NCBI GenBank assembly: GCA_963667785.2
Contig: CAXXMU010000006.1
Span: forward strand, 32,001 to 96,000
Reading direction: 5' to 3'
Source of the DNA: Alphaproteobacteria bacterium
Lineage (GTDB): Bacteria; Pseudomonadota; Alphaproteobacteria; UBA828
DNA length: 64,000 bases
Translations under genes and position numbers: made by a program
The notes under the pieces: model-generated
Database searches by the model: none
Told to the model about the DNA's origin: nothing
Seen by the model: only the letters and a program-made list of their open reading frames with translations
Shown: positions 23,396 to 51,921 of the stretch, in pieces
Layout: the number at the start of each line of letters is the position of its first letter
Numbering within the stretch: position 1 is the first letter of the stretch

Positions 23396-23421
23396 GCGAG
23401 AGACTTAGCCGCCCCCAACAC

Positions 23422-23507
23422 CGTCATGCCCGGACTTGTTCCGGGCATCCATATGGGCCGGGTGCGACCGAGAGACGTGGATGGCCGGGACAAGCCCGGC
23501 CATGACG
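23422..23507. repeat. REP-like palindrome, family 2 copy 1
   Basis: CGTCATGCCCGGACTTGTTCCGGGCATCCA...TGGATGGCCGGGACAAGCCCGGCCATGACG; recurs at 26727 and 63508. Confidence 0.9.
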
Positions 23508-23535
23508 TGGCGGAGAGAGTCCTCCCCTCTCGAGT

Positions 23536-23588
23536 CCCCGGACCATGGTGCGGTTCACGGCGCGGGGTGCCGGTGCCAGGGTGGCGCC
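23536..23588 (+). promoter_or_regulatory. Conserved 53-bp leader of gp27-like cassette A (dyad plus -10-like hexamer)
   Basis: 49/53 identical to reverse complement of 51869-51921; dyad CCGGACCATGGTGCGG at 23538-23553. Confidence 0.7.
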
Positions 23589-24146
23589 ATGACGAGCACG
23601 AGCGACCAAGCCACGAAAGACCGCTGCGACCCACGCTCCTCGCTGAGGAGCCTGCCGCCTGCGCTGCTCGATTCCGTCGACACCGCGATCGCCGACGGCG
23701 CCACCATCGACGAGATCACGGCCCTCATCCACGCCGAGGGCGGCACCTGCTCGCGCTCGGCCGTCGCCCGCTACGCCCGGCGGGTGCGCGGCATGGTCGG
23801 CCGGAAGCACGAGGCCGGCCGCATCGTGCAAGGATTGGCTCGGGTGGAGGAGGCGTGCGACGGAGGCCCCGTCAGCGGGCCCGTGATCGAGACCCTGCGG
23901 GAGATGGCGCTGATCGCCCTGGCCGATCTCGACGAGAACGAGGAGCCCGTGCCGCCGGGGGTGATCGCCCGCCTCGCGCTTGCGGTGCACCGCCTGGAGA
24001 GCGCCGACAGGTTCCGCATCGAGCGCGAACGCGAGGCGGCCGAGGCCGAGGCCCGCGCCACCGGCGGGCCTCCCTACAGCCAGGGGCTCTCGGACGAGGC
24101 CGTCGCCATCATCCGCAGGGCGGTCGAATGCGAGTTCTCGCGGTGA
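23589..24146 (+). CDS. Phage Mu gp27 (DUF3486)-like protein, solo copy A
   Basis: RSSL..LPP...VD..I..G.TIDEI...SRSAVARY N-terminal HTH-like pattern and GLSDEAVAIIRR C-terminus; paralog at 51281-51868. Confidence 0.75.
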   Translation: MTSTSDQATKDRCDPRSSLRSLPPALLDSVDTAIADGATIDEITALIHAEGGTCSRSAVARYARRVRGMVGRKHEAGRIVQGLARVEEACDGGPVSGPVIETLREMALIALADLDENEEPVPPGVIARLALAVHRLESADRFRIEREREAAEAEARATGGPPYSQGLSDEAVAIIRRAVECEFSR

Positions 24147-24178
24147 GCGCGCCGCGCCGCCGCCATTCGACCCCCGCT

Positions 24179-24274
24179 GTGCCGCATAGAGTGCCGCTTG
24201 TGCCGGGTTGTCCCGGGATATCCCGCATAAAAAACGAGGGGGGCCGTGTCACTTCGCGCCCCCGCCGTCCGGCC
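24179..24274 (+). repeat. About 10-bp-phased GTGCC/GTCCC array and conserved tail of cassette A
   Basis: Cores at 24179, 24191, 24200, 24210, 24220, then A-tract, G-tract and GTGTCACTTCGCG; same layout as 51179-51265. Confidence 0.7.
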
Positions 24275-24413
24275 ATGACGAAGGGGAGATCGGGCGGCAG
24301 GGACCCGTTGCCGCGAACGACACCATGTGCGCCGCGCTCACGACCGACTCAGGCGCGGACTCTCTTTCCGCGCTCGCGACCTTTCAGGCGCGAGCGACCC
24401 GGGCTCGCGTGAC

Positions 24414-26641: not shown

Positions 26642-26726
26642 CCCGCGCTAGTGTCCCGTTTCCGAGGTTTATGCGCACGCAGTCGGGCTGGTGGGTGACC
26701 TCGCCGACCGCGCCTCTCCCCCATGT

Positions 26727-26821
26727 CGTCATGCCCGGACTTGTTCCGGGCATCTCGTTCAGTAGGCACCCTCCGTCACCAAGAAGACTCGTGGATGGCC
26801 GGAATAAATCCGGCCATGACG
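26727..26821. repeat. REP-like palindrome, family 2 copy 2
   Basis: Same arms as 23422-23507; lies between convergent genes. Confidence 0.88.
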
Positions 26822-26867
26822 CGGAGAGAGCGCCGTGCAGATGGACGGGAACTGTTGGAGCGGGACG

Positions 26868-28403
26868 TTAGCGCTGGGTCAGCTTGAGCTCGATGCGGCG
26901 GTTGCGGCGGTAGGCGATCTCGTCCTCGCGCGCATCGAGGGGCTGGAACTCGCCGTAGCCGGTGGCGCTCAGGTGCCTGGGCGAGATGCCCCGGTCGATG
27001 AGGAAGTTCACCACCGAGATCGCGCGCGCCGACGAGAGCTCCCAGTTCGAGGGGAAGCGCGCCGTCTGGATCGGCCGGCTGTCGGTGTGGCCGTCGACCT
27101 GCAGGATCCACGGCAGGTCCGTCGGGATTCGGACCATCACCTCCTTGAGGATGTCCGCGAACTTGGCCAGCCGGTTCTGGCCTTCTTGCCCGAGCTCGTC
27201 GGACGCGGACGCGAACAGCACCTCGGACTGGAAGACGAAGCGATCGCCGATGATGGTGAAGTCGCGCCGGTCGCTCAGCACCTGCCTGAGCCGCCCGAAG
27301 AACTCGGAGCGGTAGGCGGCGAGCTCCTCGACCTTGGCGGCGAGCGCGAGATTGAGGCGTTCGCCCAGGTTGGCGATCGTCACCTGCTGCTCCTCGCTCT
27401 TGCGCTCGGAGATTTCGAGGGCCTGCTCGAGGCGCGCGAGCTGGGTCCTGAGCGCCAGGATCTGCTGGTTGAGCAGGGCGATCTGATCGCGCTGCCGGGC
27501 GCTGAGCTGGCGGTTCTCGCTCAGCGCGGATTCGCTGTCGGCGAGCGAGACCTGGGCCGCCAGGTGCAGCGCCTGCACCTCCGCGAGACGGATCTCCCGC
27601 TCCTCCAGCGAACGCTGGGCCAGCACCGTGCGCTCCTGCTCGTCCGAGAGGCGCTCCTCGAGCTCCGCCGTCGTGTCACGGAGCGCGGCGAGATCAGCGA
27701 GGATGAGATCTATCTGCTCCCGGCTGAGCCGAAGCTCGCCCCGGCTGGCCTCGAGCTCCTCCTGGCTCCGTGCGAACTCATCCCTGCTGCTGGCGAGCTC
27801 GTCTTGGCTCTTGGCGAGCTCGTCCCGACTTGCCGTCAGCGCCAGGGCGAGCGTCGCGACCTTGGCCTCGAGGTCGGCACGCACCGCCTGCAGCGCGTCG
27901 ATGTCGCGGCGAAGACGCTCGAGATCGGTGAGCAGGAGTTTGATCCTCTCCTCGCCGGCCTCGATCAGGAGCATTGCCTCGGCCTCGGCCTGCTGCGCGA
28001 TGGCGGCCTCGGCCAGCGCCGTCTGCCCCTCGCCGGTCATGTCCCGCAGCCGCAGCCGCAGCGTGTCGCGCTCGCCGCTCGCCGAGGCGAGCTCGGCGCC
28101 GAGCCGGTCGCGTTCGGAGAGCGAGGCCTGAAGCTGGGCCGAGAGCTGGGCGATGTTGAGCCGGAGCTCGGCGTTGGCCTGCTGCTCCAGCGACAGCATC
28201 TCGGCGAGGCTGCTGATCTGGGCCGACAGCTCGTTCAGCTGGTCGTTCGTGCCCGACAGCGTGCGCTGGAGGAAGTACTGCGCCAGCATGTAGACGACGA
28301 GCAGGAAAATCATGACCAGGAGCAGGGTCGACATGAGGTCGACGAATCCCGGCCAGTAGTCGGAGCGCTGACCCCTCCGTCTCAGGCGCGATGCGGCGTA
28401 CAC
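26868..28403 (-). CDS. MotB/OmpA-family peptidoglycan-binding protein with long coiled coil
   Basis: WPGFVDLMSTLL TM with Asp; coiled coil; VDGHTD, NWELSSARA, NRRIE. Confidence 0.88.
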   Translation of the reverse strand: MYAASRLRRRGQRSDYWPGFVDLMSTLLLVMIFLLVVYMLAQYFLQRTLSGTNDQLNELSAQISSLAEMLSLEQQANAELRLNIAQLSAQLQASLSERDRLGAELASASGERDTLRLRLRDMTGEGQTALAEAAIAQQAEAEAMLLIEAGEERIKLLLTDLERLRRDIDALQAVRADLEAKVATLALALTASRDELAKSQDELASSRDEFARSQEELEASRGELRLSREQIDLILADLAALRDTTAELEERLSDEQERTVLAQRSLEEREIRLAEVQALHLAAQVSLADSESALSENRQLSARQRDQIALLNQQILALRTQLARLEQALEISERKSEEQQVTIANLGERLNLALAAKVEELAAYRSEFFGRLRQVLSDRRDFTIIGDRFVFQSEVLFASASDELGQEGQNRLAKFADILKEVMVRIPTDLPWILQVDGHTDSRPIQTARFPSNWELSSARAISVVNFLIDRGISPRHLSATGYGEFQPLDAREDEIAYRRNRRIELKLTQR

Positions 28404-51123: not shown

Positions 51124-51178
51124 GGCGCGCACTATAGGCGCGCGCCGGAGCGGCGCAAGACGCGCGCGGGCGGCGCGC

Positions 51179-51265
51179 GGCCGGGCGGCGGGGCCGCGAA
51201 GCGGCACAGACCCCAATTAATTTGTTAGGCGGCACAATCCGGCACAAAGCGGCACGAAGTGGCAC
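51179..51265 (-). repeat. 10-bp-phased GTGCC array and conserved tail of cassette B
   Basis: GGCAC on + strand at 51231, 51241, 51251, 51261 (exact 10-bp period) plus 51203, separated by an AT-rich tract. Confidence 0.8.
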
Positions 51266-51280: not shown

Positions 51281-51868
51281 TCACCAATACACCTCCTCGC
51301 CCTGCTCGCGCCGCAGCTGAAGCCCGAACTCTCCCTCGACGGCCTTGCGGATGGTGGCGACCGCCTCCGGTGTGAGGGGCTTCAGCTTCTTGCCGCCGGC
51401 GGCACGGGCGGCTTCCTTCGCCGCGTGTTCCCGTGCGACGCGGGTCTGATCGGCGCTTTCGAGGCGACGCACCACGAGCGCGAGGCGGGCGATCTCCTCC
51501 GTCGGCACCGCGTCCTCCCTCTCACCGAGATCGGCCAGGGAGCGCAGCACCAGCGACCGCACGGCCTCGATCACGGGCGCGCTCGCGCCGCCCTCGACAC
51601 GCTCGGCCAGCGTCCGAACCCATCCCTCCGCCATGCGGTCGGCCTCGTGCTGCAAGCGGATCAGGCCGCGCAGCCGCCTGGCATAGCGCGCGATGGCCGA
51701 GCGCGAGCAGGTGCCGCCCTCGGCGCGGATGAGGGCCGCGATCTCGGTAAGGGTGGCGCCGTCGGCGATCGCCGTGTCGACAGTCTCGCGCAGCGCGGGC
51801 GGCAGCCGCTCGAGCGACGAGCGCCTGCCCCTCCTGACCGGCTTTGCCCAATCGCTCGTGTTCGTCAT
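51281..51868 (-). CDS. Phage Mu gp27 (DUF3486)-like protein, solo copy B
   Basis: RSSLERLPPALRETVDTAIADGAT...SRSAIARY...LTPEAVATIRKAV; colinear paralog of 23589-24146. Confidence 0.75.
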   Translation of the reverse strand: MTNTSDWAKPVRRGRRSSLERLPPALRETVDTAIADGATLTEIAALIRAEGGTCSRSAIARYARRLRGLIRLQHEADRMAEGWVRTLAERVEGGASAPVIEAVRSLVLRSLADLGEREDAVPTEEIARLALVVRRLESADQTRVAREHAAKEAARAAGGKKLKPLTPEAVATIRKAVEGEFGLQLRREQGEEVYW

Positions 51869-51921
51869 GGCGCCACCCTGGCACCCGCGCCAGGCGCCGT
51901 GAACCGCACCATGGTCCGGGG
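51869..51921 (-). promoter_or_regulatory. Conserved 53-bp leader of gp27-like cassette B
   Basis: 49/53 identical to 23536-23588; dyad at 51904-51919. Confidence 0.7.

Follow-up and report, generated by a model that had tools for sequence, protein, structure and literature searches.

Dispersed cassettes with a small-terminase-like gene, a putative Mu-type late promoter and phased repeats in an uncultured alphaproteobacterial genus

We analyzed a stretch of 64,000 nucleotides (the window) from an alphaproteobacterium of the GTDB lineage UBA828 (assembly GCA_963667785.2, contig CAXXMU010000006.1, positions 32,001 to 96,000 of the forward strand). The window contains two cassettes, unit A (23536-24274, plus strand) and unit B (51921-51179, minus strand). 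Each is about 740 bp long and has one layout: a leader, an intact open reading frame (ORF) for a protein related to Mu gp27, and a 3' array of GTGCC repeats. The single ORF, of 185 or 195 amino acids, is the entire coding content of the unit. The original prediction described these two units correctly, but it took the cassette to be present just twice. In fact, there are about 35 leader-bearing copies in the genome, and only units A and B keep the gene; at least 10 of the other copies, which we read, are gene-less "minis" of 250-450 bp. Across genomes, the leader motif, the gene, and a set of Mu-derived particle genes strictly co-occur. The best explanation for the sequence of the unit is that it would be a late transcription unit, complete in itself, that came from a Mu-like phage now domesticated in the genus. 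As a repeated element it is of a new kind: a phage late transcription unit that has reached tens of copies in a genome without a visible transposase.

As for its role, we tentatively read the protein as the sequence-specific small terminase subunit (TerS) of a conserved, Mu-derived system that resembles a gene transfer agent (GTA), and the arrays as dispersed packaging-start (pac) sites. This is a serious possibility that falls somewhat short of an even chance. Below, G000 is the genome under study and C1, C5, C6, and C8 are its contigs; other G-numbers are genomes of relatives, and L-numbers are individual gp27-like loci. The parts of the two cassettes are as follows.

Unit A, plus strand
23536-23588, plus strand: leader, 53 nt
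23538..23553, plus strand: dyad CCGGACCATGGTGCGG, 16 bp, proposed Mor/C-type late-activator site (sequence motif)
23577..23591, plus strand: -10-like hexamer CAGGGT (A2, T6), 6-nt spacer, and ATG; spacing kept among copies
23589..24146, plus strand: gene for a 185-amino-acid DUF3486/Mu gp27-like, small-terminase-like protein (PF11985, PHROG 426)
24179..24224, plus strand: array of five cores (GTGCC three times, GTCCC, ATCCC), read by eye and with Tandem Repeats Finder (TRF)
24225..24274, plus strand: A-rich spacer, G/C hairpin (GGGGGC...GCCCCC), and tail ending in CCGGCC, from alignment with unit B
Unit B, minus strand
51921-51869, minus strand: leader, 53 nt
51904..51919, minus strand: dyad CCGGACCATGGTGCGG, 16 bp (sequence motif)
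51866..51880, minus strand: -10-like hexamer CAGGGT, 6-nt spacer, and ATG (read from the sequence)
51281..51868, minus strand: gene for a 195-amino-acid DUF3486/Mu gp27-like, small-terminase-like protein (PF11985, PHROG 426)
51231..51265, minus strand: array made up of four GTGCC cores spaced by exactly 10 bp, from TRF and a pattern count
51179..51230, minus strand: A/T-rich spacer, G/C hairpin (GGGGTC...GGCCCC, with a GTGCC unit in the loop), and tail ending in CCGGCC, from alignment with unit A

The leader and the Mu-derived gene set

The leader motif (CCSSACCATGGTGCGGTGSA, 20 nt, allowing up to one mismatch) has 36 matches in the genome, one of which is the reverse reading of a perfect palindrome. 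As a control, the same pattern read backwards has none. In 33 of the 36 matches, an ATG lies 42 nt past the central T of the dyad, and in one more it lies 43 nt past it; in relatives, 29 gene-bearing loci were measured, of which 20 have a distance of 42 nt and 6 have one of 43 nt. The center of the 16-bp dyad is 42.5 nt before the ATG. The -10-like hexamer keeps its A2 and T6 and ends 6 nt before the ATG, and no -35 element or Shine-Dalgarno sequence is recognizable in the leader. The same motif, with the same spacing, also precedes the gene for the large terminase subunit (TerL) at G000:C1:6623 (with a short relic in between), a head protease gene at G000:C1:10153, a portal gene at G000:C8:116243, and a lysis pair (DUF5675 and a holin-like gene) at G000:C8:123095. 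In G018, G002, G003, and G013, the motif precedes TerL, portal, or lysis pair there too. Furthermore, the TerL locus encodes an activator of the Mor/C family (PHROG 836, E = 3.5e-12; Pfam Mor, 28.3 bits versus a cut-off of 24.9).

In phage Mu, the C protein binds a 16-bp imperfect dyad centered at -43.5, and the late promoters have a -10 hexamer but no typical -35, according to passages of PMC2582627. Each of the features of Mu's late promoters (the C-activated Plys, PI, PP, and Pmom, and the Mor-activated Pm) is found in the sequence here: a 16-bp dyad with the right spacing (about 43 nt upstream), a -10, no typical -35, repetition of the motif before lysis, terminase, and head genes, and a gene of the Mor/C family. 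The leader reads as a Mor/C-type, activator-dependent late promoter. The short distance from the hexamer to the ATG suggests that the transcript would be leaderless or nearly so, and if transcription does start at or beside the ATG, then the match to the architecture of the Mu promoters is close. The cassettes differ from the Mu promoters in the sequence of the dyad and in the start that apparently coincides with the ATG; also, about 30 further copies here front gene-less relics.

As originally predicted, the leader is better conserved than the protein: the leaders of A and B differ at 4 of 53 positions (49/53 identical), while the proteins are 59% identical (108/184). This is probably because the leader would be a late promoter common to the particle genes. 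The dyad is also present upstream of all 24 loci that we found by their ATCCC-type arrays (see below), with at most one mismatch in 20 nt at 22 of the 24. The bodies of the minis are 74-93% alike, whereas their dyads are nearly intact. One leader-like motif (G000:C6:591842) has no ATG at the usual distance and has an ORF of 293 amino acids (VASRKQIRANRRNARRSTGPK...) at +90.

In each genome, the particle genes are split among two or three loci. In G000, the locus at G000:C1:2994-26413, between dps and atpH, encodes the activator (G000:C1:2994-3371), a Gam-like protein, a repressor, TerL (G000:C1:6751-8100), the head protease, a scaffold, the major head protein, a neck protein, the major tail protein, a 256-amino-acid tape measure, minor tail proteins, and a J-like fiber of 2036 amino acids. 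The portal, the lysis genes, and the two TerS-like genes lie outside this locus. We found no transposase among the ORFs of G000:C1:1-28000, and the search was confined to that locus. In G018, the lysis pair and TerL lie between the same host genes; in G002, the order is lysis pair, truncated gp27-like gene, TerL; and in G003 and G013, TerL and portal lie between unrelated host genes.

Most of the genomes that have the element have one TerL that is 65-71% identical to the prophage TerL that we used as a query. (This conserved TerL was not found in G011, G015, or G016, nor in G006, which is 67% complete.) Across five species, the conserved TerL shows about 79% identity and no stops, and its ratio of nonsynonymous to synonymous rates (dN/dS) is 0.24-0.34. 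For the lysis genes, identity is 76-84% and dN/dS is 0.23-0.35; for a housekeeping control gene, mnmA, identity is 84-88% and dN/dS is 0.19-0.26. All of these values come from the same method, in which saturation of synonymous sites sets in near 0.3. A single ortholog of the major head protein, at 91-94% identity, is present in each of 16 among the 17 further genus genomes that carry a TerS-like gene (two of the 16 also hold distant homologs at 30-37% identity), and the protein has no match in G018, G011, G015, or G016. The activator is present as one copy of 77-85% identity in 14 genomes, and G005 has a second match at 51%.

The TerS-like protein has 1-15 matches per genome in 17 of the 20 other genomes of the genus, and intact ORFs for it are found in many of its species. 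It has no match in 4 genomes from other genera of the family or in 5 genomes from the order, and at the level of the class, 1 of 11 genomes has a match (26% identical). The leader motif has 8-63 matches in 14 of the 17 other genus genomes that were scanned. It has none in the remaining three (G011, G015, and G016), all of which lack the gene, and none in 23 genomes from 9 other genera. These three genomes also lack PF11985, the conserved TerL, the major head protein, and the activator. Overall, the gene set has the pattern of a domesticated, GTA-like system rather than of a decaying prophage.

The genome also has three Mu-like prophage regions (G000:C1:198000-213000, with L006; G000:C5:1-12000, with L005; and G000:C6, at about 494000-502000), each with a gp27-like gene and a TerL. 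The region on C1 ends after a gp30-like gene, and host genes come next. The leader motif was not found near the late genes of these three regions, and the prophage activator is only 50% identical to the conserved one, so the prophages may not trigger the cassettes. This matters for the idea that the cassettes are an anti-phage decoy, in which the late activator of an infecting or induced Mu-like phage would fire the cassettes, the TerS-like protein would poison or misdirect the phage's terminase, and the dyads would soak up the activator. A phage-late promoter and a TerS homolog with no TerL beside it are what a decoy would have, the presence of the three prophage regions with their own gp27-like genes (25-30% identical) also speaks for it, the fast evolution of the protein would fit an arms race, and the TerS of phage-inducible islands, which redirects packaging, is a precedent. 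But cooperation accounts better for the strict co-occurrence with a conserved set of TerL, head protein, and activator, and we consider a decoy to be improbable.

The small-terminase-like protein and its repeats

Both ORFs belong to the family that had been proposed for them. The profile of PF11985 (DUF3486) matches unit A with 61.9 bits (E = 1.3e-16, profile positions 3-169 of 173) and unit B with 73.1 bits (E = 4.6e-20, positions 2-171 of 173), far above the curated gathering cut-off of 28 bits, and PHROG 426 ("terminase small subunit") agrees, with E = 8.7e-18 for unit A and 2.3e-24 for unit B; that gp27 is a TerS rests on annotation. The proteins resemble Mu gp27 in the full-length profile match, the length class, and the predicted N-terminal helix-turn-helix followed by a helical body. 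In Mu, gp27 is encoded directly before TerL, whereas here the gene stands alone among housekeeping genes, with what appears to be its own late promoter and a 3' array, and in multiple copies. An AlphaFold model (ten family members) has a mean predicted local distance difference test (pLDDT) of 71.6. The pLDDT is 90 or above at about residues 21-70, where the helix pattern from DSSP is that of a helix-turn-helix, and it is 57-79 in the long helices that follow.

The three further PF11985 genes in the genome are 25-30% identical to the solo family. Two of them were read, and both precede the large subunit of the terminase in Mu-like prophage regions; the third is directly beside a TerL match. 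The solo proteins are colinear with the prophage gp27-like proteins next to TerL, at 25% identity, and have a C-terminal stretch (GLSxE..IR..VEG) in common with them. There is no gp28-type TerL directly downstream of the solo gene at unit A or unit B; this arrangement is found only for the distant prophage copies and the truncated relic in G002. Among viruses, we found homologs in six GenBank phage records (25-34% identity) and at one IMG/VR locus (27% identity), and no close relative of the solo protein in either collection. A profile search with a narrow alignment found 26 loci, all in metagenome bins; these bear the labels Alphaproteobacteria, Rhodospirillales, or Defluviicoccus, and one further bin bears the label Vicinamibacteria. 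A search for homologous proteins yielded six unnamed hits. Run records indicate a sponge- and coral-associated habitat, and most of the runs held only small shares of the query words.

To the extent that complex prediction is informative, it is consistent with contact between the protein and the conserved TerL. For protein B with this TerL, the median score was 0.43, versus 0.00 for the best of three controls, which was graded as weak support; contacts agree between runs to at least 52%, and the partner has a pLDDT of 56 or higher. Of 157 solved complexes, 116 reach the mark used for this grading, as do 2 of 215 mismatched pairs; those that reach it with a score of 0.60 or less comprise only 18 of the 157 solved complexes but both of the passing mismatches (these counts are approximate because custom alignments were used).

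The repeats in the arrays have a period of 10 bp, or about one helical turn. In unit A, the cores are 9-12 bp apart and the last three are spaced by exactly 10 bp (TRF reports a period of 10 for 24198-24225), and one further repeat-like unit lies in the hairpin loop. In unit B, TRF reports a period of 10 and 3.7 copies. The pattern GTGCC-N5-GTGCC occurs four times in the window versus 0.39 expected, and 0 of 100 shuffles reached four; three of the four occurrences are in unit B. A contig from the public run X2 that is 97% alike has one extra 10-bp unit in the array of unit B. Across the family, the core goes with the lineage of the protein: A and B have GTGCC, L023 has GGGCC, L024 has GTCTC, and most relatives have ATCCC. 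In the genome, our scan found 12 element arrays of the GTGCC type and 24 loci with arrays of the ATCCC type. The arrays are at TerS-like modules and minis, and there were none at the coordinates of the other late genes. For comparison with the arrays, the ends of the Mu-like prophage in G000:C1:188000-199300 could not be defined.

The ORF of many relatives continues into the array. Ahead of the array, the ATCCC lineages have a conserved motif (TVTSVPVDPWNP) that varies mostly at third codon positions, so the C-terminal extension in these lineages is probably translated. At L020 (G008:C6:507958-511509), the ATCCC-type array has expanded to five in-frame blocks of 30 bp, with the peptide PPDPGESHFV repeated.

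A helix-turn-helix followed by long helices in the model, repeats phased at one helical turn beside the gene, and GTGCC-like words that also occur in the leader of unit A are what one would expect of a DNA-binding protein with its own sites. Such a protein might act in regulation or DNA organization (for instance, as an autoregulator or like a centromere-binding protein), or the array might act as RNA. However, neither a partner ATPase nor a regulated operon is nearby, and the orientation of the cassettes is inconsistent, as unit A converges on the gene for ribosomal protein L31 while unit B points toward a tRNA 2-thiouridylase gene. No Rfam family matches anywhere in the window. This explanation also leaves the late promoter and the tie to the particle genes unexplained, and we view it as very improbable.

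Copies, borders, and mobility

Unit A is flanked by a gene for a coenzyme A-transferase III and a small ORF, and by the genes for ribosomal protein L31 and an ABC transporter; unit B is flanked by a TENA/THI-4 gene and the tRNA 2-thiouridylase gene. Consistent with the original prediction, these are housekeeping genes, and none of the annotated neighbors adjoining either unit is a phage gene. The homology between the two units stops at 24274 (A) and 51179 (B). The minis have the leader, a short relic of the ORF, often an ATCCC-type array, a GTGCC-type array, and the same hairpin and conserved tail as in unit A. They fall into sub-families, each with one internal structure or deletion that is found at different loci in copies that are 74-93% alike. 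Since minis at different loci share an internal deletion, they were copied after the gene was lost, and long ago.

In the copies from 29 relatives' loci, the left border is sharp at the dyad, and the sequence upstream is unrelated between copies. Often a hairpin like those of repetitive extragenic palindromes (REP-like, ...GCGCGA) lies directly before CCCCGGACC: among the copies listed, six do so by a strict pattern and about ten by eye. REP-like hairpins of the form CGCGCTCGCGACC-N5-7-GGCGCGAGCGAC occur at about 100 intergenic places, including 24352-24395 in the window, and about 10 of the 35 leader-bearing modules start directly after one. We also considered GACTCAGGCGCGCGCTCCCAGCC as an independent target repeat and rejected it, as the element follows all four close matches.

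The intergenic site of unit B is empty in six relatives (G002, G006, G011, G019, G015, and G016) and holds gene-less minis with ATCCC-type arrays in four others (G001, G004, G005, and G012). Furthermore, metagenome contigs from two runs join position 51162 of the window to 51970 or to 51974, and 27 or 31 other letters separate the joined positions. A mini is also present at the site of unit A in G005. Because both of the gene-bearing sites hold minis in other species, much of the pattern reflects descent with decay. No relative had a full Mu-like prophage, of which the cassette could be a deletion remnant, at the sites examined; these were empty or had gene-less minis. Neither the 29 borders nor the comparison of filled and empty sites revealed a terminal inverted repeat or a target duplication, which agrees with what had been seen in the window, and as the flanks of the filled and empty sites are about 80% alike, a short target duplication could be hidden.

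Plain debris, that is, chance remnants of decayed Mu-like prophages, is hardly credible as an explanation. Descent from a Mu-like late operon is clear, and G002 still keeps lysis genes, a truncated gp27-like gene, and TerL. But the same borders recur in the roughly 35 copies here and in hundreds in relatives, there is no other phage DNA at the sites, orthologous sites are precisely empty, and the ORF is intact in many species.

Could the cassette be a selfish element instead? In this scenario, it would be a non-autonomous element that arose from a phage TerS unit and is similar to the miniature inverted-repeat transposable elements (MITEs), with the dyad and the array-hairpin tail as ends recognized by a recombinase. 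The protein, with no role for the host, would be either a leftover or an accessory factor that binds DNA. Common ends, dispersed copies, and presence or absence at orthologous sites, as expected of a transposable element, are all observed, and no transposase that tracks the element was found (Y1 and IS110 were tested). Mobilization by HUH/Y1 transposases was rejected, as none of the 21 genomes of the genus has one. Mobilization by IS110-family enzymes is unsupported because their genes do not co-occur with the element: G002 and G005 have the element and no such genes, and G011 has two such genes and lacks the element. IS110-family genes have expanded in some genomes, with 81 matches in G003, 68 in G012, and 54 in G010, many of them in tandem about 1.7 kb apart; most other genomes have 0-17.

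The element resembles MITEs and also REPIN-RAYT systems (REP doublets forming hairpins, with REP-associated tyrosine transposases) in that its short, dispersed copies number in the tens and have conserved ends, and in that a few masters carry the gene, all within one lineage. It differs from them in that no inverted terminal repeats or target duplication were seen, the protein has no recognizable catalytic domain, and the genus has no Y1 enzyme. A selfish origin would account for about 35 mostly gene-less copies with sharp common borders, for mini sub-families that were copied after internal deletion, for the empty site of unit B and the contigs that join across it, for the frequent REP-like hairpins beside copies, for the frequent location of copies at the contig ends of draft assemblies, and for the weak selection on the gene (see below). 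On the other hand, the element encodes no transposase, the copies in the genome are old (74-93% alike), the minis at both gene-bearing sites indicate vertical descent with decay, and a dead relic would not need the near-intact dyad of the minis. We consider the selfish element, with a protein that has no host role, to be rather unlikely. Also, a selfish element is compatible with packaging at the arrays.

A possible role in packaging of chromosomal DNA

If the cassettes seed packaging, the steps might be as follows. A resident Mor/C-like activator would fire the promoter of the cassette, and the TerS-like protein would be made. This protein would bind the phased repeats beside its own gene and repeats with the same core in the gene-less minis, and it would recruit the conserved, Mu-type TerL. 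Headful packaging of chromosomal DNA would then begin at the dispersed modules, which would be the pac sites of a GTA-like system whose genes are at multiple loci. We infer all of these steps: activator binding, the start of transcription, array binding, contact between TerS and TerL, packaging, and particle production. Of the options in the original prediction, a TerS with a pac-like site that redirects packaging to host DNA is still the best-fitting, but the likely partner is the resident, conserved Mu-derived set and not an incoming helper phage. A more elaborate proposal, a Mu-derived GTA with diversified, sequence-specific TerS paralogs and tens of cognate-array modules under one late activator, is doubtful.

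Several results weigh against a packaging role. First, the dN/dS of the TerS-like gene is 0.20-0.67 in 14 close pairs and 1.14 in two more; in distant pairs it is 0.80-1.19 (0.80 for A versus B), with synonymous sites saturated. Selection on this gene is only weak to moderate and is weaker than selection on the particle genes. The original prediction had suggested a comparison of dN/dS among copies, which thus gave values below 1 for most of the close pairs and for A versus B but not for all, and it had described the unit as a selected, multi-copy minimal element rather than debris. The many copies, sharp borders, and empty orthologous sites uphold much of that description, and the strength of selection does so less well. 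Second, the gene is kept in only 2 of about 35 modules here, and about 24 minis have ATCCC-type arrays with no matching protein lineage in the genome. Third, the recognition helix (CSRSAVxRY) is nearly invariant across lineages with different repeat cores, and no specificity residues that co-vary with the cores were identifiable. Fourth, a Foldseek search of the PDB had no match with an E-value of 0.001 or lower; small terminases occupy its first three rows, but with E = 0.74-0.94.

Other points against it concern the arrays and the gene set. In G002, the single relative with a gp27-like relic in the operon ahead of TerL, no 10-bp array follows that relic, which implies that the array is not simply the phage's inherited pac site. 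G018 has 26 matches to the motif with one partial match to the gene and no major head protein. In G000, the portal ORF is 383 amino acids long, versus 413 and 442 in G003 and G013, and TerL is separated from the protease by a host gene, so the set may not be functional in this genome. (The opposite-strand, host-type gene at G000:C1:9121-10047, where the portal would be expected, looks like a homocysteine S-methyltransferase by its sequence.) The conservation of phage-like genes alone shows neither particles nor host-DNA cargo. Finally, all of the related loci with record titles are from metagenome bins, and the organism is known from bins only.

Chromosomal TerS genes that act on non-phage DNA have precedents. 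In phage-inducible islands with TerS/pac modules and in lateral transduction, a chromosomal TerS and its site send packaging into non-phage DNA in place. The cassettes differ from phage-inducible islands in being only about 740 bp long, with no integrase, replication module, or excision, and in that their partner is apparently a resident gene set.

The gene set as a whole resembles RcGTA, the GTA of Rhodobacter capsulatus. As described in passages of PMC6854486, RcGTA is also a phage-derived gene set that is kept by the host, is spread over several loci, and has a common activator and a TerS (g1); the set described here is a putative counterpart. In passages of PMC6854486 and PMC7947584, the RcGTA TerS is without the N-terminal DNA-binding domain, and packaging-start sites are not known for any GTA. 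Known GTAs are thought to begin packaging at random, and for RcGTA, this is put down to TerS having lost its DNA-binding domain (passages of PMC6854486). In contrast to RcGTA, the TerS-like protein here appears to have retained its helix-turn-helix; it exists in multiple, diversified copies with phased repeats next to the gene, and the head and terminase genes are of the Mu type. In our literature searches, we came across no account of a solo DUF3486 cassette, and none of a GTA of the Mu type or of TerS-pac modules that are dispersed.

If the packaging reading is true, then a host-kept system that has a DNA-binding TerS and scattered cognate sites would offer another solution to the problem of how cells select the DNA that they export. 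It would also open that problem to direct tests, as two short proteins, an array of 40 bp, and one promoter could be moved to a laboratory host. Under the more elaborate proposal, in which packaging would not be random, a module that seeds packaging would be over-represented in particles and could spread through populations without a transposase. Apart from any role in packaging, the element family probably also shapes genome rearrangement in this uncultured lineage.

Another dispersed repeat lies just upstream of unit A, at 23407-23519 of the window. It is palindromic and about 100 bp long, with two hairpins (catgcccggac..gtccgggcatg and ggccggga..cccggcc), and one of its frames reads MPGLVPGI. 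A similar repeat is found near 26671-26871, and each of five relatives has tens of copies at 76-91% identity.

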